Source: a virus (lineage: Duplodnaviria > Caudoviricetes). From it: 57,994 nt of DNA. A program made the translations under genes and the position numbers. Within the stretch, counting starts at the first letter, position 1. Each line of letters starts with the position of its first letter. Below are positions 8,628 through 51,198 of the stretch, piece by piece. The notes beneath the pieces were generated by a model. It had not been told where the DNA came from. It was given only the letters and a program-made list of their open reading frames with translations, and made no database searches. Location: IMG/VR virus record IMGVR_UViG_3300044971_003295, positions 1-57,994 of that record; one strand, given 5' to 3'.

Positions 8628-8951
8628 ATGCCAGCGTTTGAGTCGTTTTTCCCAGAAGATTATCCAGATTTTGAAGAATTTGGGACTCCTCCCTGCGCTA
8701 CGAGCGACCCTGACTCCTTCTTTTCTGAAGACCATCCTGATGGAATGAAAAAGATTCGGCCTATCTACCGCTATGAGCGTGAAGCAAAGCAAATATGCCT
8801 AGAGTGTCCTTATATGAAACGATGCTTGCAGTTTGCTTTGGACAACCCCGACGTGCAAGGTATCTGGGGAGCAACCACTGAGCAGCAGCGAATTAAGATA
8901 AGGAAGGGTATTCCGGTTTCCATAGCCCTGCCCTCAAGTAAACATCGCTAA
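8628..8951 (+). CDS. whiB: WhiB-family Fe-S transcription factor
   Basis: C..DPD.FF...AKQICLECPY...C...GIWG. Confidence 0.9.
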   Translation: MPAFESFFPEDYPDFEEFGTPPCATSDPDSFFSEDHPDGMKKIRPIYRYEREAKQICLECPYMKRCLQFALDNPDVQGIWGATTEQQRIKIRKGIPVSIALPSSKHR

Positions 8952-9915: not shown

Positions 9916-10047
9916 ATGGCAAAAGGTAAAGGCGGCGGTCCTGCCCCTAAAAAGGGTGGCAATGATGACCGCAACAACAAGAAGGCGTTTAAGAAGCGTC
10001 CGAAGATATTTGACGCAATCAAGCGTCGTCTAATCACTAAGTCATAG
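9916..10047 (+). CDS. Small, highly basic protein (43 aa)
   Basis: MAKGKGGGPAPKKGG...KRRLITKS; GAAAGGA RBS; below the ORF-track length cutoff. Confidence 0.65.
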   Translation: MAKGKGGGPAPKKGGNDDRNNKKAFKKRPKIFDAIKRRLITKS

Positions 10048-10471: not shown

Positions 10472-10803
10472 GGGGATGACAGGTTTCGACTGGCATCTGA
10501 AGTTTGGTGAAGCAAGCCGAGATGGCGGAGTCTCGTAAAACCGCTAAAAGAAATAAATGCTGAATCACGTTCTGCATTCGCTCTAGCTGCTTAGTAGCAG
10601 TTAGAACCCCTAGAAAAGCACTAATCCTAAGTGGGCAGCTAGGCTTTAAATAAATAGGATAACCCGCACCACGTCCATGCTGGAGACGTAAAACTGTAGC
10701 ACCAGGAGATGTGGCAGTGCAGTCTCCGAAATATTCACTGCCTAAGCTTGTAGAAGAACAAATCGAATATGTTAGGACGCGGGTTCAATTCCCGCCATCT
10801 CCA
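10472..10803 (+). ncRNA. ssrA: tmRNA, tag (A)AESRSAFALAA
   Basis: 5' GGGGATG...TTCGAC; 3' T-arm GCGGG-TTCAATT-CCCGC; acceptor CATCTCC-A with a G3.U70 pair; tag ORF 10559-10594 after AAATAAAT. Confidence 0.95.
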
Positions 10804-10804
10804 C

Positions 10805-10834
10805 TTGACAACCGTAAGAAAAGAATGTTAATGT
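10805..10834 (+). promoter_or_regulatory. sigma70-type promoter
   Basis: TTGACA-18nt-TAATGT. Confidence 0.6.
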
Positions 10835-16647: not shown

Positions 16648-16721
16648 CGGGAGTTAGCTCAGCCGGTTAGAGCCCCGAACTCATAATTCGGTCGTCGCGG
16701 GTTCAAGTCCCGCACTCCTGA
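16648..16721 (+). tRNA. tRNA with CAT anticodon (elongator Met, or Ile2 after lysidine modification)
   Basis: Acceptor CGGGAGT/ACTCCTG, D-arm GCTC/GAGC, anticodon arm CCGAA-CTCATAA-TTCGG, T-arm GCGGG-TTCAAGT-CCCGC; lacks initiator features. Confidence 0.9.
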
Positions 16722-16757
16722 CTTGACAGAAATCATCGACGTCAGTAAGGTACTTAT

Positions 16758-16940
16758 ATGACAAATGCAGAGCTTGAGAAACTTCTAAAGGAAGCTAGGT
16801 TCATCAGACAGCAAGAACGTAAACGTCTGTATGAAAAAGCTAAGCGTGCTCGAAAAGCCTCCGGTACTCCAATGGCAGAGAGAGCCGACTTAAAATCGGT
16901 ACAGTGCGAGTTCGAGTCTCGCGCGGAGGACAATGGGTAG
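16758..16940 (+). CDS. Possible leaderless basic peptide running through tRNA-Leu
   Basis: TTGACA-17-TAAGGT (16723-16751) with ATG 6 nt later; helical basic N-terminal half. Confidence 0.4.
   Translation: MTNAELEKLLKEARFIRQQERKRLYEKAKRARKASGTPMAERADLKSVQCEFESRAEDNG
16858..16930 (+). tRNA. tRNA-Leu(TAA), short variable arm
   Basis: CCTCCG/CGGAGG acceptor (7th pair G.G), GCCGA-CTTAAAA-TCGGT, GCGAG-TTCGAGT-CTCGC. Confidence 0.8.
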
Positions 16941-37672: not shown

Positions 37673-37936
37673 ATGCTTTCACCACTAGAAAAATACCCAG
37701 ACCAATCGCTAACAGAACTATTGCCACAATGGTTATGGGGAATTACCATAAAGAATTACAAAGACAAAATTGTAAAACGAGTTCTATGGCAAGACGGAAG
37801 TATTACGCTTACTTTCTGGGAACGACCAGAACTGCGAACCTACCAATACGAACACACAAACACAATGGACTTTCCAACAACAGCCGAGTATGTCGCTTGG
37901 TTGCCAACACTAGAAAATTGGAACGGAGTAAAGTAA
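37673..37936 (+). CDS. Hypothetical early protein
   Basis: TTGCCA-18-TATAAT promoter; GAGAGG RBS. Confidence 0.65.
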   Translation: MLSPLEKYPDQSLTELLPQWLWGITIKNYKDKIVKRVLWQDGSITLTFWERPELRTYQYEHTNTMDFPTTAEYVAWLPTLENWNGVK

Positions 37937-38160
37937 TGGGATACAGCAACTACCCCGAGGGGTCAATGATGGGGTCAGGCATTTATTCAGTAGAAGTTGA
38001 GTATGATGAGTTCTTCTGCGAAAATTGCGAAAAGACCAACGAAGAGGGAACAACCTCAACTGATGATTGGGGCAACTACATTGTTGAGTGCGAGTTCTGT
38101 AATTACACGCACAAGGAGAGTAGCCTGAAACAAGACCGAGACGACTACTACCAAGATTAG
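37936..38160 (+). CDS. Acidic Zn-ribbon protein
   Basis: TAATG overlap; CENC...CEFC. Confidence 0.65.
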   Translation: MGYSNYPEGSMMGSGIYSVEVEYDEFFCENCEKTNEEGTTSTDDWGNYIVECEFCNYTHKESSLKQDRDDYYQD

Positions 38161-38357
38161 TCAAACAACCCGAGCAAGTTGTAAAACTGCTCACCACGCC
38201 TCGGGCGGAAAAATAAAAAATTTTTGCTGCTACGCAGCAAAAAATAAAAAATAAAAGCCTCATTTATAAAATGAACCCGCCGACCCCGACTTGCTAATGT
38301 CGCCCAAGTGTGTTTAGATTGTAGTGTGGAACAACCCCCACAAATGAGGAGAACAAA

Positions 38358-38801
38358 ATGTCGGAAACTAACTACAACCCAGACTTCCTAACCGAAGACC
38401 AAATCCGTATCAACTTGCTACAAGAGCAAGCAACAGCACAGGCAACAGAGTTGTCGAACACCATTGACCGCCTAAAATCAAAGACACAGCGAGTAAGCGA
38501 CCTCAATGATGAAAAGTATCGTGCCTTTGAGATTATCAAAGACGCAATCGAAAGCGACGACATTGAGGCTGACGCTGATTGGCTCAAAGAAGTTGCCGAG
38601 GTATTCAGTTGGGAACTCAAACGAGAAGTAAATGTGAGGTTCACAATCACAGGAACGGCTAGTGTAAGTCTGCCTTACGGCAAGGAACTAAGCGACTTCT
38701 CTTTCAGTTCGTCAGATGTTTCGATTGATTGTGATGGCTGGAACAATGATGCCGAGGTATCTGTCGAAGACCACCAACTCGAAGACATAGACGAAGAGTA
38801 A
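38358..38801 (+). CDS. Cassette gene: acidic coiled-coil protein
   Basis: Promoter plus GAGGAG RBS. Confidence 0.75.
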   Translation: MSETNYNPDFLTEDQIRINLLQEQATAQATELSNTIDRLKSKTQRVSDLNDEKYRAFEIIKDAIESDDIEADADWLKEVAEVFSWELKREVNVRFTITGTASVSLPYGKELSDFSFSSSDVSIDCDGWNNDAEVSVEDHQLEDIDEE

Positions 38802-39007
38802 ACCTGCGACCTGAGCAAGTCCTAAAACTGCTCAACAAACACCGCCGCGAAAAATAAAAAATTTTACGGGGCTACGCCCCGTAAAAATAAAAATCAAAAT
38901 CTTCATTTATAAATGAACACGCCGACCCCCGACTTGACTTATGTTGCGTTGTGTGGTTTGATTATAGAGTAGGGCAAATCGACAATCCTACAAAGGAGAT
39001 GGTTGCT

Positions 39008-39355
39008 ATGAGCAACGACAACAACGAGGGTGTAAAGCCCGACAACATTTCAGACAGCCCTGAAATTGTTGTTATCACCAGCACCAAAGTTCGCAAGGCT
39101 CACGCCGACTTTGTTCAGGCAAAGTTAGACGAGAACAACGCAAAGGAACGCAAGGCAAAAGCCGAGGCAATTCTTCGTGAGGCTCTCGGTGAGTTCGGCA
39201 AAGTTGGATACTTTGGCAAGACCAAAGCGTTCAGCCTTGTATCAAGCAAGAACACCAGCGTCAAGCGTGATGTTCTAGAAGAAAAATACCCTGTCGCTTT
39301 CGCAGACGAAGAAGTGTGGAACATCACTCCTTACGACTACATACGCACAGCGTAG
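39008..39355 (+). CDS. Cassette gene: hypothetical protein
   Basis: Promoter plus AAGGAG RBS. Confidence 0.75.
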   Translation: MSNDNNEGVKPDNISDSPEIVVITSTKVRKAHADFVQAKLDENNAKERKAKAEAILREALGEFGKVGYFGKTKAFSLVSSKNTSVKRDVLEEKYPVAFADEEVWNITPYDYIRTA

Positions 39356-39679
39356 TTCTTCACAACCTAAGCAAGTTGTAAAAAGGCTTACCTTGTTAGG
39401 TTGGGTAGGTGGTAGGTGTGTTCTGTGAGGCACACCTATCACCGCCGCCGAAAAATAAAAAATTTCCGCTACGCGGAAATAAAAATAAATTTTCCGCTAC
39501 GCGGAAAAATAAAAAAAATAAATTTCCTCGTTAGCGGGGCTACGCCCCGCGACCGAGGAAATAAAAAATAAAATCAAAACCATCATTTATAAAAATGACG
39601 CCGCCGACCCCGTTTGCGTATCGTTGCGTTTTGTGGTTAGATTATAGTGTGAGGACAATCTCACAAGAAACGAGGAAAA

Positions 39680-40021
39680 ATGTCGGAAAAGGTTATCATC
39701 ACAATCCAAATGGACGCTCAGGAAGTCTGGTCTAATGTGCTAGGTTCTGCTTGGGAAGATTGGGATTGGTGGGAAAAAATCAAATACAGCGAAGGTTCTG
39801 ATTGGGATAAGGTAGGCGAAATTACGCTTTCGATTACCGACCCAAATGACGAGGAAAAGGTTATTACCAAAACCCTCGGCGTTCAGGATTTGGCAAAGGC
39901 TTACGCCGAGTTAGCCTCTAAGAACTACGGCGGAACAAATCTAGACATACACGACCTAGACGCTGTGTATGGCGATTGCGTCTTACAGCAAGCAGTTCTC
40001 GGTGATGTTGTCTATGGATAA
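39680..40021 (+). CDS. Cassette gene: acidic phage protein (DA..GD..LQ....G.VVYG)
   Basis: Promoter plus AAACGAGG RBS. Confidence 0.75.
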   Translation: MSEKVIITIQMDAQEVWSNVLGSAWEDWDWWEKIKYSEGSDWDKVGEITLSITDPNDEEKVITKTLGVQDLAKAYAELASKNYGGTNLDIHDLDAVYGDCVLQQAVLGDVVYG

Positions 40022-40129
40022 CACTCGACAATCGTTGAGGAAGATAGCCCGAGTGTTCTACGGAATAGGAAACTTTTTTATGTCCGTAGAACACAGGGTT
40101 TATCTGAAACAACGCAGAAAGGAAAAGTA

Positions 40130-40504
40130 ATGAAAACGAGTTGGGATACAAACCGCAAAAAGAACCTAATTCCGAATTACAAGATTGACGAAAAACTAAA
40201 AACCTTTGAGAGTTTTGAGAATTACAACAGAACTATCACCGCTGTTCGTAATGGCTCTCTCTACTCAATCACTCATTGGGATACAGTAATTCTGAATTAT
40301 GATGTTGATAACTCAGAAATCTTGTTCTTCCGGTCTTACTACATCAGCAACACAACAAGTAAATTGGTTGGCAGACTTATCCGAGCATTTCCGCAAGGAA
40401 CTTTTGATAGACTGCTAGAACGGCAACGACCACAAGACCGCTCACGCCTAATGCGTATGCGTAAAGGCAGTAGCAACCAACAGCCAGAAATCATTTACGC
40501 CTAA
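40130..40504 (+). CDS. Cassette gene: hypothetical protein
   Basis: GAAAGG RBS; Y.I..W.T.I...S.TTSK motif. Confidence 0.7.
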   Translation: MKTSWDTNRKKNLIPNYKIDEKLKTFESFENYNRTITAVRNGSLYSITHWDTVILNYDVDNSEILFFRSYYISNTTSKLVGRLIRAFPQGTFDRLLERQRPQDRSRLMRMRKGSSNQQPEIIYA

Positions 40505-40675
40505 CATTTGCCCTCACCGCAAGGTGGGGGCATTTGGCGTTCCAAATAAAAAATAAAAAATAAAATCAAAAGCCTCATTTAGAAAAAGACACCGCCAGCC
40601 CCGAGTTGCGAAATGTCGTAGGTTCGTGAGAAGATTATTATGCGAGTATCTCTCGCAGAAAACGAGGTGATTACT

Positions 40676-40924
40676 ATGGCAGAAATGCCCAATCTACACA
40701 TCTGGACTTCTAACCACACTTACTTACGAGATGGCACAAATCAAGTAAGTATGAGCGTTAGAACCTACATCAAAAACCTTGATGATGACTACAACAACAG
40801 CACAGCAATTTCCGAGGCACAAGTTATTTTTAGCGTTGAGGGATTTGCTAGGTTTGTCGGAGAGATGAACGAACATCTCGAAAAAATCAAGGCTGAGGTA
40901 GCCGAGGTTTCCGAAGTAGCGTAG
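40676..40924 (+). CDS. Cassette gene: hypothetical protein
   Basis: Promoter plus GAGGTG RBS. Confidence 0.7.
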   Translation: MAEMPNLHIWTSNHTYLRDGTNQVSMSVRTYIKNLDDDYNNSTAISEAQVIFSVEGFARFVGEMNEHLEKIKAEVAEVSEVA

Positions 40925-41151
40925 CCAGACCCAAGCCCACCCGAAAGGGTGGGTGAGGGGTCGGCAAAAATAAAAAATTTTGCGCTACGCGCAAAAATAA
41001 AAAAAAATAGAATTACACCGCTGCGCGGTGAAATTCTAAATAAAAAATAAAAACCTTCATTTATAAAATGAACGCCGTCGCCCCGTTTGCGTAATGTCGC
41101 CATTTCCGATAAACTAGAACTACGGAGTGTGTCCGTAGAAAACGAGGAGTA

Positions 41152-41373
41152 ATGAGTTGTAAGTGTGAAGACCGCCCCGCTTGCGGTTGCCTTAGCGAAA
41201 GCGGATACTACGATTACGCCGACCCACACGACTACGCAGACGAACAGCGTGAAAAGATGTTCTCTGACGAAGACGGCTGTGAAATGTGCGGTGTTCGCTG
41301 GAACAGGCAAGACAACGAAGACGACATAACTCAGGGTTTCCACGCTGAGTGTGCCGACACTATCGTAATCTAA
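41152..41373 (+). CDS. Cassette gene: Cys-rich acidic protein (CEDRPACGC)
   Basis: Promoter plus GAGGAG RBS. Confidence 0.7.
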   Translation: MSCKCEDRPACGCLSESGYYDYADPHDYADEQREKMFSDEDGCEMCGVRWNRQDNEDDITQGFHAECADTIVI

Positions 41374-41434
41374 CAAAAACCTAACCTGAGTAAGTTATCA
41401 AACTGCTCACCCAACAAAAATGAGAGGAAACAAA

Positions 41435-41599
41435 GTGCCAAAATACAGAATAACCTCAACTATTCAGTTTGAGTTTGAGGGAGAGTTTGCCAACGAAGCA
41501 GAAGCAGAAAAGTTTGCTGGCAACTACGACAACCTACAATACTCAATGCCTGTCGAACTAGACATTGAGGAACTAGAAGACGAGGAAGAAGATGAGTGA
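41435..41599 (+). CDS. Cassette gene: very acidic 54-aa protein
   Basis: GAGAGG RBS, GTG start, MPKYRITSTI...DEEEDE. Confidence 0.65.
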   Translation: MPKYRITSTIQFEFEGEFANEAEAEKFAGNYDNLQYSMPVELDIEELEDEEEDE

Positions 41600-41843
41600 A
41601 ACCAGAGAAAACCCATACTTGTCTTACTCGCTAGATAGTCTAGGAACTATCGCACAGCAATACGCTCTAATGCTTGGTGGTGGGCAAACCACGCTAGGCA
41701 ACGGCGACAATCTAGGCGAGGCATACGAACAAGTATGCGAGGCAATCGAAAGTCGTCAGGAAACGGATTATTGTAAGCACGGAAACTTCCGTTGGACAGA
41801 CCACGATATTCCTTGCGGTGCTTGCGAGTTTGGCGAGGACTAA
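41592..41843 (+). CDS. Cassette gene: protein with C.H...C..C motif
   Basis: Coupled ORF. Confidence 0.65.
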   Translation: MSETRENPYLSYSLDSLGTIAQQYALMLGGGQTTLGNGDNLGEAYEQVCEAIESRQETDYCKHGNFRWTDHDIPCGACEFGED

Positions 41844-42034
41844 CCAGCAACCAGATACCAGCCGAAAGGTTGGTATTTGGTGTTGCGAAAAATAAAAAAT
41901 TTGCTTCGCAAATAAAAAATAAAAATCAAAAGCACAGATAAAAAAGCATCGCCAGCCCGCCGCTTGACTTTCCAAGCGTTTCGTAGTTAGATAGTAATGT
42001 GAGGACTACACTCACAGAAAACGAGGATAGTAGT

Positions 42035-42319
42035 ATGTGCGACAACCCTGAACACAACCACGAAATACCTGAAATGAGCGAGGCAGAAGTAGAAAAACTG
42101 TTTATGCTCGCAGGTGCGTTGGTGCTAGGTATTCAGTATTCCTTTGACCCGTCAGTAAATTTCCAAGAAGCACCAGAGGAAATTATAGAAATGGGGAAAT
42201 GGGAAATGATGGTCAGAACCATAAGTATCAAAAACGAACTAGGTGAACTGATAGACACAATCCTAGAACGGCAAAGCGACAACAAATTTGAGAACATAAT
42301 CAAAGACTTTGATTTGTAA
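42035..42319 (+). CDS. Cassette gene: hypothetical protein
   Basis: Promoter plus AAACGAGG RBS. Confidence 0.7.
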   Translation: MCDNPEHNHEIPEMSEAEVEKLFMLAGALVLGIQYSFDPSVNFQEAPEEIIEMGKWEMMVRTISIKNELGELIDTILERQSDNKFENIIKDFDL

Positions 42320-42381
42320 GAGCACGACCTAAGCAAGTCGCAAAAAGGCTTACCCACCTAAACGAGAGGAACAGATAACTA

Positions 42382-42723
42382 ATGGCAGACTTTTACGGCG
42401 TATCAGTTTTGCTACCCCACGCAAAGGCTATTGCTTGGGATACTTGCCACAAGATTTATATCTTGATGGACAACGAACAAGTAATAAAAATGCGTGAATA
42501 CGGCTACGGCGACGAAAATGACCCAGACAGCCTAATCACCGCAGAGCAAATGACCAAGCAAGAAATGTTAGACACTATCCAAAAGTGGTATAACAGCAGT
42601 TGCTCATTACGCTTTATCAACGCAGTATCAACTGTGCCAGAAGGCACAGACCCAAATGAAGGGTTCGAAGTTATTATCGGTCAATTTGACGACGAGGACG
42701 ACGACACCGACGACGAGTATTAG
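42382..42723 (+). CDS. Cassette gene: hypothetical protein (AWDTCHKIY...W...C.LRFI)
   Basis: GAGAGG RBS. Confidence 0.7.
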   Translation: MADFYGVSVLLPHAKAIAWDTCHKIYILMDNEQVIKMREYGYGDENDPDSLITAEQMTKQEMLDTIQKWYNSSCSLRFINAVSTVPEGTDPNEGFEVIIGQFDDEDDDTDDEY

Positions 42724-42944
42724 ACCCCCCTCGCAACCTGAGCAAGTTGATAAACTGCTCACTAAACACACCGCCGCAAAAATAAAAAATTGCGCTCCGC
42801 GCAAAAAATAAAATTGCCGCTGCGCGGCAAAATAAAAATCAAAACCAGCATTTATAAAATGCAGGCCGTCGCCCTCGTTTGACGGACACGTCCGTTTGTG
42901 ACAGACTAGTTATGCGGACACCGTCCGTAGAAATCGAGGACAAA

Positions 42945-43388
42945 TTGGAAACTGAAACAGAGAGAGTCTGTGTCTTAGAAATCAACTCAGACTGCACTTG
43001 CGAAGAGTATGACGAAGAAACAGGCGAAAGCAAAGTAGACGACAACGGCTATCCCGTTATGTCTAATTATTGCTACGGTTGCTACGATGACGACCTAGTG
43101 GCCTTGAAGTATGACGTATTACCTGAGTGGCTTGGAGCAAACGGTTGGGATACCGACACCAGAGTTACAATCAGAGGCTCAAGGATGGGTTGGACAAACG
43201 ATAGCGGGTATCTAACTACCACAATCGAATCAGCAGAAAAATTGCTTGATAAGTTGCGTATCAACGGCGACTACACCTTGCGATTCTATCGCAAGGGTAA
43301 GAACCTTGAAGTTGTAAGGTCAAGCCACGACGAACTTGGAGCGTTGTTTGAGTTTGAGTTAGCCGAAGAAAGTGATGAAGATTACTAA
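42945..43388 (+). CDS. Cassette gene: acidic protein (GW...SG; SHD..G)
   Basis: Promoter, GAGG RBS, TTG start. Confidence 0.7.
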   Translation: METETERVCVLEINSDCTCEEYDEETGESKVDDNGYPVMSNYCYGCYDDDLVALKYDVLPEWLGANGWDTDTRVTIRGSRMGWTNDSGYLTTTIESAEKLLDKLRINGDYTLRFYRKGKNLEVVRSSHDELGALFEFELAEESDEDY

Positions 43389-43584
43389 CAGTAGTCTACC
43401 TAGCCCTGCCGAAAGGCAGGGTTAGGCCACTTGCGGCGGAAAAATAAAAAATGCGCTACGCGCAAAAATAAAAAATAAAAATCAAAAGCTCAATTAGAAA
43501 AGCATCGCCCGCCCGCCGACTTGCGTAATGTTGCCGTTTGTGAAAGAATTGTCTTGCGGGACTATCCGCAGAAACGAGGAAATC

Positions 43585-44052
43585 ATGGGATTAGACATGT
43601 ATCTTTCGGTTCGCAAATACGCTTCGGAGTATTCAGGCGACATACCGAAAGCCGACATCGAACAGGCAATTCGCCTATTCGGTTTCAATCCGTCAGAAAT
43701 GGGTTCGGGCTACACCGCCGCAGAAATCAGACTGACCGCTATCTATTGGCGTAAAGAGAACGCTATTCACAACTGGTTTGTGAAAAATGTTCAAGACGGA
43801 ATAGATGAGTGCCAAAAAGCGATGGTATCAAGAGAGCAACTAGAAAAACTGAAATCGGAGTGTGAGGTTGTTCTAGCCTTTCCAGAGAAAGCAAGTAGTG
43901 TCTTACCGACAGCCAGCGGGTTATTCTTTGGTGGAACGGAGTTTGATGACTGGTATTATGAAGGCATCAAGATAACTCGCGACAAACTCGCTAAGATACT
44001 CACCGACCCGACCTTCAAAGATTGTGAATTTGAATACCAATCTAGTTGGTGA
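43585..44052 (+). CDS. Cassette gene: phage protein (MGLDMYL...YWRK.NAIH.WF type)
   Basis: Recognisable motif; AAACGAGG RBS. Confidence 0.75.
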   Translation: MGLDMYLSVRKYASEYSGDIPKADIEQAIRLFGFNPSEMGSGYTAAEIRLTAIYWRKENAIHNWFVKNVQDGIDECQKAMVSREQLEKLKSECEVVLAFPEKASSVLPTASGLFFGGTEFDDWYYEGIKITRDKLAKILTDPTFKDCEFEYQSSW

Positions 44053-44257
44053 TAACCGCCCTGCCCTCTCTACGGAGAGGGTAGGGTCATTGCCGCGAAA
44101 AATAAAAAATGCGCTTCGCGCAAAAAAATAAAAATTTCGCTGCGCGAAATAAAAGCAAAACCTCAATTAGAAAAGCATCGTCGTTCGCGCCGTTTGACTA
44201 AATCGCCAAACTATGAAAGACTAGTTATGCGAACGCCGTTCGCAGAAACGAGGAAAA

Positions 44258-44626
44258 ATGTCTGAAACAAAGAAAGCAGTTGTTGTTCAGCCGAACGGAA
44301 CTGCCGAAGTTATTGAGTTTACCAGCGATACCGCTCTGGCAACTCTACAAAAAGCAGTAGACGGCTACATCGAACCCGTATCCCTTGACGAGAATTTCGT
44401 TATGTGGGTAAACGAAGAAGGGCTACTACGCAACGACCTAGTATCAAACTATGTCGGAGCAATTCTTTACCAAGAGGTATTCCAAATTCCAAATCCAATC
44501 AACGGCACTATCGTCTTTACAGGCGGAACTGACGAAGAGGGCTACACGCAGGGTCTAACCACCGCACAAGTATTCGCAGCGTTGAGTATGGCGGATGTAG
44601 CCTACAAAGCATCAAACCAGCAATAA
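44258..44626 (+). CDS. Cassette gene: DUF3846-like protein
   Basis: L..LQ.AV.GYIE.V...VNEEG...N...I.G..V..G. Confidence 0.75.
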   Translation: MSETKKAVVVQPNGTAEVIEFTSDTALATLQKAVDGYIEPVSLDENFVMWVNEEGLLRNDLVSNYVGAILYQEVFQIPNPINGTIVFTGGTDEEGYTQGLTTAQVFAALSMADVAYKASNQQ

Positions 44627-44819
44627 GTTTCCCTCGAAATCACCTGAGCAAGTGGCTAAACTGCTCTCTCCTTGCCTTTGGCAAAAATAAAAATTTGCGC
44701 TTCGCGCAAAAATAAAAAATAAAAACACATTTAGAAAAGCAAGCCGCTCGACCCGATTTGCGTTTAGTCGCGTTCTGTGGCAAACTGATTATGCGGACAC
44801 TCCGCAGAAACGAGGAAAA

Positions 44820-45449
44820 ATGTTTATTGTCGAAGACATAAGAACTTGGTTTACGCCCTCAACTATCGACGAGTATCGTAGACTAATAAAACAGCCAACT
44901 CACAAAATAAATAGTGAAGATGAAGTTTGGAACAACTCTCTAAGTCTTTCTCAGTTTGTAGTCTACGGATACCCTAAGCCGAGAGATTACGGACAGGTAA
45001 ACTCAGGCTACCAACGCACTTCCGAGCCTATGAAACTAGGGTTGGTATCGCCAGAAGATTACGAGTGGCAAATTGCCGTAGAAAACTACTACCAATCAAA
45101 CTTGTTCGGTCAATACATACTGAACGATGAGATTAGAGAGCCAAAACTTGCCAAAAGTAAGTATCGCCTACACTACGCTAGGTTGCTACTTCCGTTCAAG
45201 CCCTTCCATTGGTCAAGTAGAGATTATTGGTCAAAAGAAGGCTCTCCGTTTATTCCCTGCTACTACATAGAGCGACTAGACGAAACAGGCAAAAAGGTCA
45301 GGAAATACATAGATTACTTTGCCGTAGACAACGCTTTCGTCTTAGAGCCTACGGGTTGGAACAAATCAGGCAGACGCTCACACACAATCCCCGAAGATTG
45401 GCTGAGTGGCAGACTTGATGGACTAGACGGATACGCCAAATTCGCATAA
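44820..45449 (+). CDS. Cassette gene: hypothetical protein
   Basis: Promoter plus AAACGAGG RBS. Confidence 0.7.
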   Translation: MFIVEDIRTWFTPSTIDEYRRLIKQPTHKINSEDEVWNNSLSLSQFVVYGYPKPRDYGQVNSGYQRTSEPMKLGLVSPEDYEWQIAVENYYQSNLFGQYILNDEIREPKLAKSKYRLHYARLLLPFKPFHWSSRDYWSKEGSPFIPCYYIERLDETGKKVRKYIDYFAVDNAFVLEPTGWNKSGRRSHTIPEDWLSGRLDGLDGYAKFA

Positions 45450-45683
45450 CCCACGCCCTACACCGCAAGGTGTAGGGTTTGGCGTTTGCGGAAAATAAAA
45501 AAAATTCGCTGCGCGAATAAAATAAAAAATAAAAAATCAAAAAACACATTTACAAAAAACACGCCGCGCCCGCCCGTTTGACTTTCACCGCTATCGGTGG
45601 CAAACTATAAATGTAGAGCGGCGGCCTTTCGTTCCCCCCCCCCTGATACCGCCGCTCTACACCTACAAATCGAGAGGAATAAA

Positions 45684-46055
45684 ATGTCGCTAGATTGGAA
45701 CGCGTCAAAAGTCCCAAACATAGATTGGGACAACGAAGATGAGTCAAACCGAGTTGGTCGGTTCGCCTTTGTCTTGATGTTTCTCGGTATCGGTTCGGTA
45801 TCGGAAACCAATGTTGCCGAAGTAATTGTTCGCAACAAAATCCACGAGGCTTTGTTCGGGCCAGCGTATTACTACATAGACGAGGCCACAGGCGTTCGCA
45901 AGAGCGCTTACGACGCCGAGTTTATTCGCAAAATGGTCGGATACAGCACCAATGTTAGCACCGAGCCAAGAGCGAAGTGGCTAAAGCGTATGACCGACAG
46001 CGCAATCGCAGACCAAGTTAGGCAAGCCCCCCAAGCCGAGCCAGCGTTAGTCTAA
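45684..46055 (+). CDS. Cassette gene: hypothetical protein (MSLDW...G..TNV)
   Basis: GAGAGG RBS. Confidence 0.7.
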   Translation: MSLDWNASKVPNIDWDNEDESNRVGRFAFVLMFLGIGSVSETNVAEVIVRNKIHEALFGPAYYYIDEATGVRKSAYDAEFIRKMVGYSTNVSTEPRAKWLKRMTDSAIADQVRQAPQAEPALV

Positions 46056-46112
46056 GCACCAAGACCTGAGTATGTCTAAAACTGCTCACCCACTCCAACA
46101 GCAAGGACAAAA

Positions 46113-46292
46113 ATGCCAAAAAAATCAGTAGTTGATACGAGTGCCAAAGTGTGCGAAATGTGCCTACGAAATCCAGCAAAGGTTGATGTAGTAGTGCCAA
46201 TGGGCTTAGGCGAAAACTACGGCTGGGCTTATTGCGAAATGTCGCTATGCGCCGTATGTGTCGAAAGTCTGCCAGACCTGAAAACCAAATAG
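46113..46292 (+). CDS. Cassette gene: 59-aa CxxC...CxxC protein
   Basis: AAGGA RBS; below the track cutoff. Confidence 0.6.
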   Translation: MPKKSVVDTSAKVCEMCLRNPAKVDVVVPMGLGENYGWAYCEMSLCAVCVESLPDLKTK

Positions 46293-46480
46293 AACCGCAC
46301 CTGAGCAAGTGATAAAACTGCTCGCCTCAAAAAATAAAATAAAAAATTGCGCTCCGCGCAAAATAAAAAATAAAAGCAAAATCCTCATTTAGAAAAGCAT
46401 CGCCGTCGCCGCCGTTTGCGAATGTCAGCGTTATGTGGCAAACTGATAGTGCGGAACAACCCCCGCAGAAATGAGCAATC

Positions 46481-47155
46481 GTGGAAACAGCAACTACCGC
46501 AACACTTGAGGTTCTAAATAAAATGTTCCTCGAAAACACTGGTCGCAGTTTTTTGGACAGTGGCAATGCCTACGGTCGGCACTTTGAACGCCAGCAGTCG
46601 ATTAGTAACGCCGAGCGTGAGCAGGGAAAAACCAGCGTCGATGAATGGGGAAACATCACCGTTCCATTATTCCCAGCAATTTCGGCTGTGGTTGAGTATG
46701 ACCCTGAACTAAATGAACAGTGGAAAAAATTCGATGCCGAACACCCTGACGATTCTTGGCACGATACGATGGGAATGTTCTTAGATGAACTAGGCGTTTC
46801 AAGGACTGGCGACCTTTACAGTGACAGTTTCCGCTACGGGGTCAATTCTTACAACAGCGAAAACTACCTGAGCCAAGATTTCCAAGCCGAGATTTTTGCT
46901 TACGGTTTCGAGATGTATGCCCTGCTTCAGATTCACGGTGGCACTGACATTCGCGGAGGATACACCGCACCCGTAGTGTTCAAGTGCGACTGGGAATCCT
47001 TAGTGACTCTAGGGCAGACAGCGTTCCTGAACTGTGCCGAATGTGATTTTGATTTAGTGATGAATGTTGTTGACGGTATCGTCGAATCAACTGACGACAT
47101 ACCTGACAACTGGGAACTGAAAAACGGTTGCCCACGCTGTAAATCGAAATTCTAA
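46481..47155 (+). CDS. Cassette gene: phage protein (ENTG..FLDSG...GR; QIHGG.D.RGGY..P) with Zn ribbon
   Basis: Promoter, GTG start, enzyme-like conserved motifs. Confidence 0.75.
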   Translation: METATTATLEVLNKMFLENTGRSFLDSGNAYGRHFERQQSISNAEREQGKTSVDEWGNITVPLFPAISAVVEYDPELNEQWKKFDAEHPDDSWHDTMGMFLDELGVSRTGDLYSDSFRYGVNSYNSENYLSQDFQAEIFAYGFEMYALLQIHGGTDIRGGYTAPVVFKCDWESLVTLGQTAFLNCAECDFDLVMNVVDGIVESTDDIPDNWELKNGCPRCKSKF

Positions 47156-47366
47156 CCCCGAACCACCGCCGAGCATTAGACCCCCTAATGCTCGGCGGAA
47201 TCGGCGTTCAAAAATAAAAAAATTCGCTACGCGAATAAAAATAAAAAATAAAAAATAAAATCAAAAGCTCAATTATAAATCGTCGTCGTCGGCCAGGTCG
47301 TTTGACTCGCGACCGCCGATGCGATAGTCTGGTGATGCGGGTCGCCCCCGCAGAAAAGAGTGGAAA

Positions 47367-47798
47367 ATGATTGTACAAATTGTTGAAATGGAGAGAGACG
47401 AAGGTTGCGAGCACTTGGATGATGGCAAGTGCCAGCAGCACCGCATCGTTGGAGAAATCGACACAGACTCAGTGTTCTGGGCCTACGCCGAATTTCTAGA
47501 CAACGGCGAGTGGGTAAGAGATGACGGCGTTGTTTCTTACCAGCGCGACAGCATCGCCGTCCCTAACCTTGAGTATGACCCCGATGTTGCCTTGTTCTTT
47601 GCGGGTCAAGGTTTGGCCAAGGTTGGTGACACCAGAGATTATGACGATTGGGTCAAACTACAGAAACAGGTCAACTGGGAAAATCGAGTTGATGGCGAGT
47701 GCGAGATTTGCCACCACGCCTATCCAGCGAACTGCACTTGCCCGAGCGATGTGGACTGTCCAAATTGCTTAGCAGGCTCAGTCTGCATCTTTCACTAG
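47367..47798 (+). CDS. Cassette gene: Cys-rich protein
   Basis: Promoter; C-terminal CEIC..C.C...CPNC...C..H. Confidence 0.7.
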   Translation: MIVQIVEMERDEGCEHLDDGKCQQHRIVGEIDTDSVFWAYAEFLDNGEWVRDDGVVSYQRDSIAVPNLEYDPDVALFFAGQGLAKVGDTRDYDDWVKLQKQVNWENRVDGECEICHHAYPANCTCPSDVDCPNCLAGSVCIFH

Positions 47799-47852
47799 CA
47801 ACACCGCCTGAGTATGCGGAGAAACTGCTCACCCAACAATAAGGAGAAACTG

Positions 47853-48014
47853 ATGACCAAAAAAGATTATCAACTTATCGCCCAAGCAATCGCTGATACT
47901 TGGTGCGATGCCGCGGCACAACTTGCCATTGCCGAGAACATCGCTAAAGCATTGGCAGACACCAACCCGTTATTTGATAGAGACCGCTTTCTAGCAATGT
48001 GCGGAGTGGCCTGA
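47853..48014 (+). CDS. Cassette gene: small protein (MTKKDY..IA...NP.FD.DRF..CG type)
   Basis: AAGGAG RBS. Confidence 0.7.
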   Translation: MTKKDYQLIAQAIADTWCDAAAQLAIAENIAKALADTNPLFDRDRFLAMCGVA

Positions 48015-48211
48015 ACCACGCCCCAGCCGAAAGGCTGGGGAACAGGCGTTCAAAAAATAAAAATAAAAATAAAAATAAAAATTTACGGCTGCGCCGCAAA
48101 AATAAAAATAAAAGCTCATTTACAAAAAGCACGCGCCGCTCGGTCGTTTGCGTAATGTTGCGTTTCGTGGCAAACTATAAGAGCAGCACCACAACCAAAC
48201 AAGGAGATCAG

Positions 48212-48451
48212 ATGCAAATCACTCACGTAGCAAAGACGGACAGCGGAGATTACACAATTTCTTCGCTACCTTGCCCAAAGTGTTCGGTAGTATTCACCAC
48301 CGAAATCACGGGCGAGCAGTTGTTCAAAATCAACAACAACGCCCTAATTCAAGACATCGGCTTAGACCTTACCGCAGACCAGCGAGAGCAGTTTATCTCA
48401 GGGTATTGCGGAACGTGCTGGGCTGAAGAATTCTTTGGGGATGAGGACTAA
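48212..48451 (+). CDS. Cassette gene: Zn-binding protein (CPKC...RE..ISG.C..CW)
   Basis: AAGGAG RBS. Confidence 0.7.
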   Translation: MQITHVAKTDSGDYTISSLPCPKCSVVFTTEITGEQLFKINNNALIQDIGLDLTADQREQFISGYCGTCWAEEFFGDED

Positions 48452-48573
48452 TGGCACAAGCAGGATACATCAATTGCTCGGGCTGCGGGCGTTTGTTCAG
48501 CGCAGAGAGCAAAGATGAAATGGACTTGCTACTCTCGCACACCTGCGAAGACGAGGAAGGAGAAGAAGAATGA
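48451..48573 (+). CDS. Cassette gene: 40-aa CxxC..H.C peptide
   Basis: TAATG overlap; GAGG RBS. Confidence 0.55.
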   Translation: MAQAGYINCSGCGRLFSAESKDEMDLLLSHTCEDEEGEEE

Positions 48574-48716
48574 ACCCCGAACTCGCGAAAAAATTCGTAG
48601 CAATTCTCAATGCTTACGAAGACCGAGAGATTAGTGCCGAAGAAGCACTAATCCGTATCCAAATCGCCGTAGCCAACGCTAACGAAGATGCGGAACACAA
48701 CGAAATCACTCTCTAA
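48570..48716 (+). CDS. Cassette gene: 48-aa helical peptide
   Basis: ATGA overlap; AAGGAG RBS. Confidence 0.55.
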   Translation: MNPELAKKFVAILNAYEDREISAEEALIRIQIAVANANEDAEHNEITL

Positions 48717-48952
48717 CGCTGCCCGAAGCCCACACCGAAAGGTGTGGGCCTTGGCGTTTGCGAAAAATAAAAAAAAATAAAATTTGCGGCTGCGCCGCAA
48801 AAATAAAAAATAAAACCAAAAGCTCATTTACAAAAGACACGCCGCTCCGCCCGTTTGACTTCCGTTGCCGTATGTGGCAAACTAGTATTGCCAGGCAGTA
48901 AGTAATCCCCCCCCTTTCGTTGCTTACTGCCTGGCCTTATCTAAGGAGATAG

Positions 48953-49135
48953 ATGACCACCGCAACCACCGACAGAATAGAAATGTTGAGCCGAAACTTG
49001 GCCAGACACCAAATCATTATTTCGCTACTAAGCAAAAAACAGAAATGCGATGAAAGCGAAAAACCCTGCGACATTTGCTACGGATTTGATTTAGCAATCA
49101 AACTTGTCCAAGACCAACTAGAACCCGAGAATTAG
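48953..49135 (+). CDS. Cassette gene: hypothetical protein
   Basis: AAGGAG RBS. Confidence 0.65.
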   Translation: MTTATTDRIEMLSRNLARHQIIISLLSKKQKCDESEKPCDICYGFDLAIKLVQDQLEPEN

Positions 49136-49143
49136 GAGAACCA

Positions 49144-49311
49144 ATGATACCTTGCGAAGTGTGCGGAAAGGACACCGCCGACACAGGCGAGCCTTGTGAT
49201 GAGTGTATGAACCCGTCATTCACCAAGCCAGACTTTGGCAGCAGACCTGCTGATGAGTATTTCGCCTACATAAAGAGCGACGCTTACATCGCCTATCTCA
49301 ACAGCAACTAG
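49144..49311 (+). CDS. Cassette gene: 55-aa CxxC...CxxC peptide
   Basis: AGGAG RBS. Confidence 0.55.
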   Translation: MIPCEVCGKDTADTGEPCDECMNPSFTKPDFGSRPADEYFAYIKSDAYIAYLNSN

Positions 49312-49497
49312 CACCGAGCCGCCCTGCCACTTTCGAGTGGCAGGGTTTCGGCTTTGCGGAAAATAAAAATTGCTGCTCCGCAGCAAAAATAAAATTTGCT
49401 GCTCCGCAGCAAAAATAAAAATCTAAAAGCTCATTTATAAAAGACACGCGCCGCTCGGTCGTTTGACTAAGTGCCGTAATTGTGAAAGACTATTCTT

Positions 49498-49683
49498 GGA
49501 CCCAAACGCTGGCTGGTAAAGGCTATGGGCGTTGGCTATGGCGGTCATAGCAATCGGCTTACCAGAGCCGACACAAGATAGCGGAGAGAGTGAATAAAAT
49601 ACCGCTCGCGACCTTAGGCAGTTGCTACCGATTACAAGCCTATAACTGCGTAAGGTGCTAGGGAGAGCAACCCCCTAGCACCG
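49498..49683 (+). ncRNA. Candidate structured RNA carried as cassette cargo or leader
   Basis: Starts at the predicted TSS; at least five helices and a possible pseudoknot; no ORF with an RBS. Confidence 0.5.
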
Positions 49684-49711
49684 AACTCCAACCCAACAAC
49701 AAGGAGATACA

Positions 49712-49954
49712 ATGCCAGAAACACAAATACTCGCAAGGTATGAAGAAGACGGGCTTGCCTGTGAGATTACTTGCGAAAACGGAGAGTATTGGTTTGTAGA
49801 TACTTACCGCACCACCGAAGATAACGAGATGGTATGGCTCAACAATACCGGCTCGCTTACCACCTACGCCGAAGCGTTCGACGCCTTCCGTCTAGACCTA
49901 GACTGCTTCTTCGGCAAGGAGTTTCACCCAACAATGCTAGTCCGCAACAAGTAG
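49712..49954 (+). CDS. Cassette gene: hypothetical protein
   Basis: AAGGAG RBS. Confidence 0.65.
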   Translation: MPETQILARYEEDGLACEITCENGEYWFVDTYRTTEDNEMVWLNNTGSLTTYAEAFDAFRLDLDCFFGKEFHPTMLVRNK

Positions 49955-50153
49955 CAACCACCGACCCCTGCCGAAAGGCAGGGTGTTCGGCGTTTCAAAT
50001 AAAAAATTTGCGGCTGCGCCGCAAAAAATAAAAAGCGGCTACGCCGCAAAATCAAAAGCTCATTTACAAAAGACACGCCGCTCCCCCGATTTGCGAAGTG
50101 TGCCAAATTATGTAATGATTAGATGGGGAACTATCAAAAACAAGGAGAACCTG

Positions 50154-50420
50154 ATGAACAATCAACCACTCAGCGCCACAATCAACAAAGCCCGAGCAAT
50201 CACTTATGTTGCCAGCAACAACCCTGATGCCTTCACCACCGCTCAACTAATCCAGATTATCAAATACGCTAACGCTGTCCTTCACACCACCAGCATAGCC
50301 TTATACCCAGACGGCTTGCCGAAAACGCCTGCTGATGTGAAAGACCAACTAGAGTCAGTAATTGCCAGAGAAGTAGCAATCTTTGAGAGAGAAGTTAGAG
50401 CAACTCTGCCTAAATTCTAA
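50154..50420 (+). CDS. Cassette gene: hypothetical protein
   Basis: AAGGAG RBS. Confidence 0.65.
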   Translation: MNNQPLSATINKARAITYVASNNPDAFTTAQLIQIIKYANAVLHTTSIALYPDGLPKTPADVKDQLESVIAREVAIFEREVRATLPKF

Positions 50421-50548
50421 CCCCGAACTGCCCTGCCTAGTCCCCCCACTAGGCAGGGTTTCGGCGTGAAAAAAATTTGCCGCTGCGCGGCAAAAAAATT
50501 TGCCGCTGCGCGGCAAAAATAATTTTGCGGCTGCGCCGCAAATAAAAT

Positions 50549-50797
50549 CGCTCAACGCGCTTCGCTTGGCCGCCGCGATCTTCCCCGGGTCGATAGCTGA
50601 ACGCTCCTTCGTCGCTTTTCAGCCTCCCCGGGTTCAGACGCTGCTGCCTTCGCTTCGGCGTTTCGCGAATAAAAATGCCGCTTTGCTTCGCTCAGCTGCT
50701 TAGGTCTCCACGGCCGGCGGGCAATCCCGGCTTCGCTGCGCTCATCGGGATGCACCTTGGCCGGGTCGAACCACGCAGCCTCCGCTCGCGACGCGGC
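50549..50797. other. GC-rich non-coding insert rich in GCTTCGC/GCTGCGC mini-hairpins
   Basis: Interrupts one repeat unit between its hairpins and its CATTTA box. Confidence 0.6.
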
Positions 50798-50926
50798 AAA
50801 ATAAAAAATAAAATCTAAATCTAAATCTCATTTACAAAAGACACGCTGCTCCGCCCGTTTGACTAACGTGCCGTTTCGTGATTGACTTAGTGTGCGGGCA
50901 AGCCCGCAGAAAACGAGGTGATGTAA

Positions 50927-51139
50927 ATGAGTTTCGGAATTGATGTTCGGTATCCCGATGTCTTTGTCCAACTTACGGGCGAAGATGGGAACTCCGTTTC
51001 CATTATGGGTCGGGTTGCTAAGGCACTAAGAGATGCTGATGTGCCTAAGGAAGAAATTGACGAATACTACGCTCAATCAATGAGCGGAGATTACGACAAT
51101 CTTCTACGCACCGCTGCCGAGTGGGTATCGGTAGGGTAA
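50927..51139 (+). CDS. Cassette gene: small protein (V.L.G.DGN...I.G.V..AL...SGDY..LL type)
   Basis: Recognisable motif; GAGGTG RBS. Confidence 0.75.
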   Translation: MSFGIDVRYPDVFVQLTGEDGNSVSIMGRVAKALRDADVPKEEIDEYYAQSMSGDYDNLLRTAAEWVSVG

Positions 51140-51198
51140 TCTCCAACACCTGAGCAAGTGTCTAAAAGGCTCACAACCCTAACAAGAAAAGAAAAGAG

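Follow-up and report, generated by a model that had tools for sequence, protein, structure and literature searches.

This work concerns a small RNA element that recurs behind stop codons in the viral record IMGVR_UViG_3300044971_003295. The window, that is, the whole stretch of DNA analysed, comprises all 57,994 bases of this IMG/VR record, whose CheckV completeness is 43%. It encodes a T4-type large terminase, a class II ribonucleotide reductase, an AAA/VWA pair, an M23 peptidase and a WhiB regulator. By terminase, the nearest cultured relative is the Actinomycetia phage DSL-LC01, from lake water (77.5% identity), in which the gene order is as in the window and WhiB is present too. Judged from the terminase kinship, the gene order and the WhiB of DSL-LC01, the window is a fragment of a large phage of Actinobacteria.

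Exactly 11 H-type pseudoknots of 27-29 nt (hereafter knots) lie in the window, all on the + (coding) strand and all at the positions where a preliminary description of this DNA, made from the sequence alone, had placed them (Table 1). Every copy comes after a small open reading frame (ORF) of unknown function, and the measured gap between stop codon and stem 1 is 4-13 nt, exactly as described. The division into five intercistronic copies, in which the next start lies 11-30 nt past the knot, and six copies at cassette ends was likewise confirmed. From 5' to 3', each copy consists of the 5' strand of stem 1 (3-5 nt, the last being C), a single C as loop 1, the 5' strand of stem 2 (UGAGCA, UAAGCA, CGAGCA or UGAGUA), one A or U, the 3' strand of stem 1 (beginning with G), an A-rich linker of 5-7 nt that ends in AAAC or AAAA (loop 3) and the 3' strand of stem 2 (UGCUCA, GGCUUA or GGCUCA). 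Covariation of stem 2 can be seen within the window itself, with TAAGCA/GGCTTA in copies 3 and 5 and TGAGTA forming a G-U pair in copies 4, 8 and 10.

The bare stem-2 pattern has 6 matches in the window against 0.31 expected (20-fold); none of 100 shuffles reached 6, and five of the six matches correspond to the motif. A degenerate pattern gave 10 forward and 0 reverse matches, its back-to-front control 0 in both directions, and a regular expression returned 11 sites on the + strand and 0 on the - strand. With a covariance model made from 145 instances, the 11 window copies, which belong to the training set, scored 33.7-44.9 bits, and the next best place in the window 10.5 bits.

Table 1 Knot copies and other features of the window. 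The two strands of each stem are separated by a slash; gap is the distance from the stop codon to the first base of stem 1.
Feature	Position	Strand	Setting	Stem 1	Stem 2	Other	Upstream ORF (stop)	Gap (nt)	Score (bits)
Copy 1	38165-38193	+	cassette end	ACAAC/GTTGT	CGAGCA/TGCTCA (5 bp)	loop 1 C; loop 3 AAAAC; tail CCA	37729-38160 (TAG)	4	44.9
Copy 2	38808-38834	+	cassette end	GAC/GTC	TGAGCA/TGCTCA		38358-38801 (TAA)	6	40.9
Copy 3	39362-39390	+	cassette end	ACAAC/GTTGT	TAAGC/GCTTA (covariant)		38951-39355 (TAG)	6	35.7
Copy 4	41382-41409	+	intercistronic	TAAC/GTTA	TGAGTA/TGCTCA (G-U pair)		41152-41373 (TAA)	8	42.3
Copy 5	42325-42352	+	intercistronic	CGAC/GTCG	TAAGC/GCTTA (covariant)		41999-42319 (TAA)	5	33.7
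Copy 6	42734-42761	+	cassette end	CAAC/GTTG			42382-42723 (TAG)	10	44.3
Copy 7	44640-44667	+	cassette end	TCAC/GTGG (U-G pair)			44258-44626 (TAA)	13	43.1
Copy 8	46062-46088	+	intercistronic	AGAC/GTCT	TGAGTA/TGCTCA	loop 3 AAAAC	45597-46055 (TAA)	6	38.9
Copy 9	46298-46324	+	cassette end	CAC/GTG			46113-46292 (TAG)	5	38.9
Copy 10	47804-47831	+	intercistronic	CCGC/GCGG	TGAGTA/TGCTCA		47367-47798 (TAG)	5	39.2
Copy 11	51146-51173	+	intercistronic	ACAC/GTGT	TGAGC/GCTCA	loop 3 CTAAAA	50927-51139 (TAA)	6	37.2
WhiB regulator	8628-8948
tmRNA gene, full-length	10472-10806	+				tag peptide AESRSAFALAA			157.8
tRNA-Met	16648-16722
tRNA-Leu	16858-16931

Interleaved helices and their covariation

The pattern used to search IMG/VR constrained stem 2, the loops and, of stem 1, the G alone, leaving the stem-1 flanks free. 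This one pattern located the motif in at least 119 contigs, and 138 instances with enough flanking sequence, among the matches listed, were examined. In 137 of the 138, the free flanks form at least three contiguous stem-1 pairs (3, 4, 5, 6 and 7 pairs in 27, 77, 24, 8 and 1 instances, respectively, and none in the remaining one), and the base preceding loop 1 is a C, also in 137/138. Pairing of these free flanks is the least biased test of stem 1.

In an alignment of 145 sequences, whose rows were admitted only with three stem-1 pairs formed and with stem 2 defined by base classes, and many of whose rows are related, 89.5% of the cells pair, compared with 75.7% in shuffles (0/500 reach the observed value) and at most 38% with slid partners. 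The covariation score is 0.400, versus 0.137 after shuffling (0/500 reach it) and no more than 0.092 with slid partners. Because of the rules of row admission, the figures for pairs 5-18, 6-17 and 7-16 are partly built in, whereas those for pair 4-19 and for the stem-2 pairs are free of this bias. Stem-1 pairs carry 4-6 pair types each. In stem 2, pairs 10-30, 11-29 and 12-28 show 7, 4 and 4 double changes with zero unpaired cells; these middle three pairs alone covary, the end pairs being fixed. A structure-only scan of the same loci revealed stem-2 covariants beyond those the pattern could select, namely TGGACA/TGTCCA (three contigs), TAGACA/TGTCTA and TGGCCA/TGGCC, as well as TAAGCA paired to TGCTTA or GGCTTA. 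That stem 1 changes between copies yet always pairs, and that stem 2 covaries too, had been proposed from the 11 copies alone, and both statements are supported across the family, with one instance of 138 lacking stem 1.

The architecture that emerges is a stem 1 of 4 bp (sometimes 3 or 5), free in sequence save for its closing C-G pair, a single C as loop 1, a stem 2 of 5-6 bp, mostly UGAGCA/UGCUCA, one A or U at the helix junction and an A-rich loop 3 ending in AAAC. A fifth stem-1 pair is present in only a third of the alignment rows, hence 4 bp as the typical length. The topology noted in the preliminary description (1-nt loop 1, 5-6 bp stem 2, A-rich loop) thus extends well beyond the window. 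Seven alignment columns are invariant and 10 more are conserved at 90% or above, which makes about 17 such positions in a 30-nt RNA. Two interleaved helices, both with compensatory changes, are what defines an H-type pseudoknot, and the element is almost certainly a transcribed, autonomously folding RNA of this type, 27-30 nt long. The nested hairpin seen in single-sequence folds (stem 2 plus G16-C25 and U17-A24) is unsupported, because column 17 is an A in about half of the family and column 24 is invariant.

Columns 25 and 26 (the base that ends the linker and the one that opens the 3' strand of stem 2) change jointly from CU to AG in three window copies and in L014, L037, L051 and L069. The change loses an A-U pair beside the junction and may represent a tertiary alternative rather than a simple loss of a pair.

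The same data bear on whether the repeats act as DNA, as recombination or nuclease sites at cassette borders. The copies flank variable small genes, and a related-strain metatranscriptome contig follows the window until 42356, four bases past copy 5, and then departs into a different gene start; from this comparison, knots may coincide with borders of mosaic modules. A role in DNA is nonetheless very unlikely, given that compensatory changes maintain both interleaved helices, the sequence of stem 1 being free, and that the motif occurs strictly on the coding strand, in association with stop codons.

Occurrence of the knot and its relation to known RNAs

Among five near-complete IMG/VR genomes, copy numbers are 1, 1, 7, 7 and 5, and in each genome the copies are grouped within a single region. 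Actinophage genes of the window (DUF932, WhiB, GP88 and that of ORF 38358-38801) recur in many of the IMG/VR carriers; this ORF, located upstream of copy 2, has homologues in 18 other motif-bearing loci. Carriers among cultured or named phages were found by a short BLAST query followed by the covariance model. They include Arthrobacter phage Amigo and twelve relatives, Celeribacter phage P12053L and Lentibacter phage ICBM2, in both of which the knot separates the genes for the reductase and glutaredoxin, Clostridium phage phiCT19406B, where stem 2 is the variant TAAGCA/TGCTTA, and the crAss-like phage cr7_1, with two good copies. In Microbacterium phage A3Wally (MZ150783.1 84483-84540; L252, L260), the helix junction is interrupted by an additional, GC-rich hairpin, which separates stem 2 from the 3' strand of stem 1. 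The copy in Synechococcus phage S-CRM01 is degenerate, with a 3-bp stem 2, and was not counted. A second knot-like unit was observed about 35 nt past the canonical knot of L025 (~9990-10030, + strand), with the same stem 2 and a longer insert replacing the stem-1 3' strand.

DSL-LC01, for all its kinship with the window, holds no convincing knot (0 pattern matches; top model score of 15.9 bits, at a site unlike the motif). In Streptomyces phage Riptide, Arthrobacter phage Mimi and Gordonia phage GMA2 there was no model match better than E 0.08, and blastn with the motif region or L059 and tblastn with a large window ORF returned nothing useful from cultured phages. Pattern matches in contigs of bacterial genomes are mostly due to chance, 93 of 120 being devoid of stem 1. 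The 27 that do have stem 1 are found among small ORFs or prophage genes of Saccharibacteria and other Patescibacteria, Calothrix, Lacticaseibacillus, Lachnospiraceae, Alistipes and others.

In the window, the only Rfam 15 families to reach their gathering scores are the tmRNA and the two tRNAs listed in Table 1, none of them on the knots. With E values of up to 10 allowed, a single family, GP20-b (RF03003), touches a knot, at 38807-38866, with 18.3 bits against a cut-off of 36.2; the other 10 window copies have no GP20-b match at that limit, and there were 0 matches in five motif-bearing near-complete genomes. The GP20-b model resembles the knot in that it aligns a 5-bp hairpin (ccgca/ugcgg) with a loop GgCgUAAAAg and gGuC before it, the pieces being in the same order. 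According to PMC10690425, GP20-b is located upstream of GP20 (portal-type) genes, whereas the knots follow stop codons of small ORFs of unknown function in the window and of 53 gene clusters elsewhere. Membership in GP20-b is ruled out both by score and by context, and the one IMG/VR site found with the GP20-b consensus pattern is an ordinary terminator hairpin. Full-text literature searches returned only primers and unrelated papers and no description of the motif, the supplementary motif lists of PMC10690425, PMC5737381 and bioRxiv 10.64898/2026.10.21.760802 being places that could contain it.

The preliminary description had not recognised the family and had proposed building a covariance model and searching Rfam and phage metagenomes with it; the lack of an Rfam family at threshold and of any description in the literature searches bears this out. 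The pseudoknot family is real, widespread and sharply conserved, and it is new to Rfam and to the searchable literature.

Among known small pseudoknots, the preQ1-I riboswitch aptamer (RF00522) is an H-type fold of about 30 nt with an A-rich 3' loop, one of the smallest natural folded RNAs, and is located in 5' leaders. The knot differs from it in its conserved bases, has no match to it at E up to 10, and is a 3' element of the upstream gene. The leader pseudoknot of T2/T4 gene 32 is also of the H-type, with a short loop 1; it occurs as a single copy in a 5' leader and is bound by gp32 for autoregulation. The knots, in contrast, occur in many copies, 3' of unrelated genes and in phages of different phyla.

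Genes and possible processing sites around the knot

In 86 of 132 instances, the stop codon of an ORF with 30 or more codons is found 8-20 nt ahead of loop 1, compared with 50 of 660 random positions. The distances from the stop codon to loop 1 show a sharp lower edge at 9 nt (9, 10, 11, 12 and 13 nt in 27, 13, 5, 13 and 11 instances; 4-6 nt in 3 only), which, with a stem 1 of 4 bp, places the initial base pair some 5 nt beyond the stop codon. The mRNA channel of a ribosome ends roughly 5 nt past a stop codon in the A site, so this is about the nearest position at which a helix can remain unopened. For the ribosome-release element suggested earlier, this spacing from the stop codon is the sole pertinent observation. 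A three-base periodicity of the stop-to-knot distances was hinted at; it is inflated by related contigs and absent in the window.

This spacing, together with the topology, is also that of known recoding knots, where stem 1 begins 5-9 nt from the A-site codon. Recoding knots of the luteovirus and retroviral types (BWYV, MuLV) are compact H-type structures with a very short, C-containing loop 1 and an A-rich loop 3 able to lie in the minor groove of stem 1. The knot shares with them its fold, its loops and its start 5-9 nt past the A-site codon, and could on this basis be thought to stimulate read-through or frameshifting at the stop codon. Unlike them, it is found in DNA phages, behind ordinary stop codons of many unrelated genes, and no extended frame follows: the post-stop 0, -1 and +1 frames have medians of 8, 6 and 3 codons (95 instances), and those in the window run for 3-32 codons, one chance in-frame neighbour excepted. 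Many copies are followed by tRNAs or T-tracts, and no slippery site was seen, although none was sought. We regard recoding as extremely improbable. The likeness to gene 32 and viral recoding pseudoknots put forward earlier is one of topology only.

The genes upstream are diverse, 93 ORFs falling into 53 clusters, with DUF932 (22), a 140-residue family (8) and ribonucleotide reductase (2) as the largest groups; elsewhere, the upstream gene is one for an SSB (single-stranded DNA-binding protein) or for an anti-restriction protein. The neighbour families most often shared are DUF932, the WhiB regulator, GP88, Hsp20 and unknowns, none of them known to bind RNA, and no RNA-binding or nuclease candidate was found among the clustered neighbour genes. 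About 14-22 contigs that share genes with the window (L026, L027, L059, L064, L085, L111 and others) carry one module, which runs from the 140-residue gene through a knot, some 1.5 kb, the DUF932 gene, a second knot and tRNA-Asp(GUC) to the homologue of ORF 38358-38801.

These neighbourhoods are relevant to the idea that the knot is where some conserved protein or machine docks specifically (ribosomal protein S1 or the 30S subunit, RNA polymerase or a protein of the phage, for example), which would mark the 3' ends of selected messages for regulation. A fixed partner would suit the ~17 positions conserved at 90% or more across phages of Actinomycetota, Alphaproteobacteria and Bacillota and a crAss-like phage, the restriction of stem-2 covariation to its middle three pairs, and the clustering of copies within genomes (7, 7 and 5 in near-complete genomes and 11 in the window). 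Against it, no candidate gene for the partner recurs beside the motif, and a phage-encoded partner would be required in very different phages. Such a binding tag, which had also been suggested earlier, is possible, if somewhat unlikely.

On the downstream side, wherever the context can be read, the knot tends to sit within about 20 nt of an RNA 3' end that, from the sequence, is made or could be made. A tRNA gene starts 4-14 nt past stem 2 in 18 of 143 instances (Asp in 14; Arg, Ser and Gly in the rest). By our own count, the gap is 2 nt in phage Amigo, where the order is SSB, knot and tRNA-Gly; it is also 2 nt in A3Wally, where the knot stands inside a tRNA array between gp129 (a 57-codon ORF) and tRNA-Glu and its tail, after TGCTCA, reads ACCA. 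Downstream of other knots lie hammerhead type III cores, in L012 (32.1 bits; E 1.9e-5) and L015 (21.4 bits), both scores being under the Rfam cut-off of 48.5 and the core CUGAnGAG...CGAAAC being intact in both. A dedicated scan found the full knot together with a hammerhead core in 8 of 120 pattern matches, of which about five lineages look credible, and in these the GUH cleavage sites, read by eye, fall 8-19 nt past the knot. The hammerhead-like cores only adjoin the element, and no ribozyme model matched the knot itself in the Rfam scan of the window. In L029 (261-445, + strand), a DUF2800 RNA (RF02960, 159.9 bits) begins one nucleotide after the end of the matched pattern. A short match to the tmRNA model (61.4 bits, 81 nt) was also observed among tRNAs near a knot in L009 (2105-2185, + strand).

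A third kind of downstream feature is a T-tract directly after the knot, present in 30 of 138 viral and 11 of 27 genome instances, compared with 5.4% of random positions; cr7_1 and phiCT19406B provide examples. Stem 2, braced by stem 1, might thus be the hairpin of an intrinsic terminator or a pause signal for RNA polymerase, a reading also favoured by the conventional hairpins of the window, whose T-tracts are on the opposite strand. It is contradicted by the lack of a T-tract at most copies, including 11/11 in the window, by the 18 copies located no more than 14 nt before a tRNA gene that needs to be transcribed, and by the 47 copies with the next ribosome-binding site within 41 nt, so that termination or pausing appears unlikely as the general role.

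The conventional hairpins themselves, about 30 short GC hairpins with a 3-nt loop, are found at cassette borders between 38200 and 52900 (e.g. 38221-38243, 38862-38886, 42790-42830 and 50476-50542). Genes being on the + strand, the T-tract is almost always on the - strand, and the + strand reads A-tract, hairpin, A-tract. In their sequence, they look like terminators of antisense transcription or upstream promoter elements, not like terminators of the preceding genes; in total, the window scan gave 46 terminator-like sites versus 24.9 expected. The knots had been said mostly to replace the terminator hairpin. This was not borne out, A-tract-flanked hairpins being still present within about 20-40 nt of the knots, downstream, at cassette ends. 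After the hairpins at cassette starts, a promoter-like repeat was observed (CATTTATAAAATG..., then TTGAC/TTGC..., then a TGATTAT-like box) at 38250-38340, 38895-38990, 42850-42880, 44720-44800 and 46380-46470, and each small gene seems, on this pattern, to have its own promoter.

Directly after TGCTC, the commonest 4-mer is ACCA (11/140 versus a background of 0.46%), and ACC is found in 25/140 (versus 1.25%); past stem 2, ACC is present in 6 of the 11 window copies and ACCA in copy 1. With its stacked stems (10-11 bp) and an A-CCA end, the knot could mimic an acceptor/T-arm minihelix, to be trimmed and repaired by the tRNA 3' enzymes and the CCA-adding enzyme, which would make it a special form of 3'-end protection. 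The A3Wally tail two nucleotides before a tRNA is consistent with this, and so is the way in which the 3' tail departs from stem 2, at its far end, a feature shared with the acceptor-stem pseudoknot of tymovirus tRNA-like structures, where the 3'-most strand pairs with a hairpin loop. Equivalents of the T-loop, T-arm and anticodon arm, however, are absent from the knot, neither ARAGORN nor the Rfam tRNA model (RF00005) calls it, and ACC and ACCA mark a minority of copies (18% and 8%), several of them from one lineage. We consider tRNA mimicry to be a doubtful explanation.

Finally, the position of the knot directly before structured RNAs (tRNAs, hammerheads and the DUF2800 RNA) or ribosome-binding sites would be accounted for if a fast-folding local knot kept the unwound coding RNA from pairing wrongly with a downstream tRNA, ribozyme or ribosome-binding site and uncoupled the translation of neighbouring cistrons. 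Any hairpin would suffice for such insulation, which leaves the sequence conservation unexplained, as well as the copies followed only by T-tracts or A-tract hairpins, and we judge it improbable.

Proposed protection of 3' ends and its implications

Since the knot belongs to the upstream gene and tends to lie near made or makeable 3' ends, we favour the reading that it is a compact 3'-end cap which shields the upstream cistron from 3' exonucleases, with a probability of roughly 0.4. The knot would be the 3'-boundary module of that cistron, placed as near to the stop codon as folding during termination allows. A few nucleotides downstream, the transcript would be ended by RNase P at a tRNA, by a hammerhead, by termination at a U-tract or, where no processing site is visible, by a host endonuclease cutting in the spacer. 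The remaining tail would be too short and the fold too compact for PNPase and the RNase II/R family to engage, and the coding RNA would be protected. Adenines of loop 3 and the C of loop 1 probably brace the fold as a triplex. In the window, the 11 knots would yield individually stabilised messages from a run of small accessory genes. The exonuclease block or processing site suggested earlier thus gains indirect support from the knots lying a few nucleotides upstream of tRNA 5' ends, hammerhead sites and U-tracts, and the resistance itself is presumed.

Several observations weigh against a cap. Its main weakness is that a plain hairpin would block exonucleases equally well, and six window copies precede further strong hairpins able to protect the 3' end alone. 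The ~17 nucleotides conserved across phages of at least five host phyla exceed what protection obviously needs, which hints at a specific partner. Nor are the 18 tRNA cases independent, since 14 represent one orthologous arrangement of DUF932 gene, knot and tRNA-Asp, and in 47 of 138 instances the knot is followed by a Shine-Dalgarno sequence and a start codon within 13-41 nt, without a visible processing site. In 5 of 132 instances, the stop codon of the ORF is a UGA inside the knot, which therefore need not stay folded at termination. Part of the region is present in one metatranscriptome run (0.23 of the sampled words), as assembled contigs that break at repeats and cannot show RNA 3' ends or levels.

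A cap formed in this way would have parallels. MALAT1 and MEN-beta have a compact triple-helical end that blocks exonucleases; in MALAT1, it is left by RNase P cleavage at the tRNA-like mascRNA. The logic proposed here is like that of these RNAs, of the exonuclease-resistant RNAs of flaviviruses, and of REP elements and RNase III-site hairpins in bacteria and T7. The arrangements ORF-knot-tRNA and ORF-knot-hammerhead parallel the MALAT1 case in that logic, with no homology of sequence or fold. Taken to its limit, the argument would make the triplex-braced 30-nt pseudoknot a portable mRNA end-cap common to phages of many phyla, set at the exit of the terminating ribosome and cut just behind by RNase P, a hammerhead or termination, its ACCA form mimicking a tRNA acceptor end maintained by host trimming and CCA-repair enzymes. 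It would then be the counterpart of the MALAT1 triple helix with mascRNA, and a new class of exonuclease-resistant RNA. This complete picture is speculative and, as a whole, rather improbable.

Very few RNA motifs keep both their sequence and a pseudoknot across viruses of unrelated hosts, and those that do are usually riboswitches, ribozymes or handles for the core machinery. The motif is tiny, easily synthesised and mutated, and present in cultured phages with non-pathogenic hosts (Amigo, A3Wally and those of Lentibacter and Celeribacter), so its function is directly testable. If the knot is an exonuclease-proof cap, it would explain how the messages of small early or accessory genes survive within tRNA arrays and long read-through transcripts, it would offer gene callers a marker of true gene ends, and it would provide synthetic biology with an mRNA stabiliser of 30 nt, effective in different hosts. 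A docking site, instead, would point to an unknown, widely shared step of phage gene expression.

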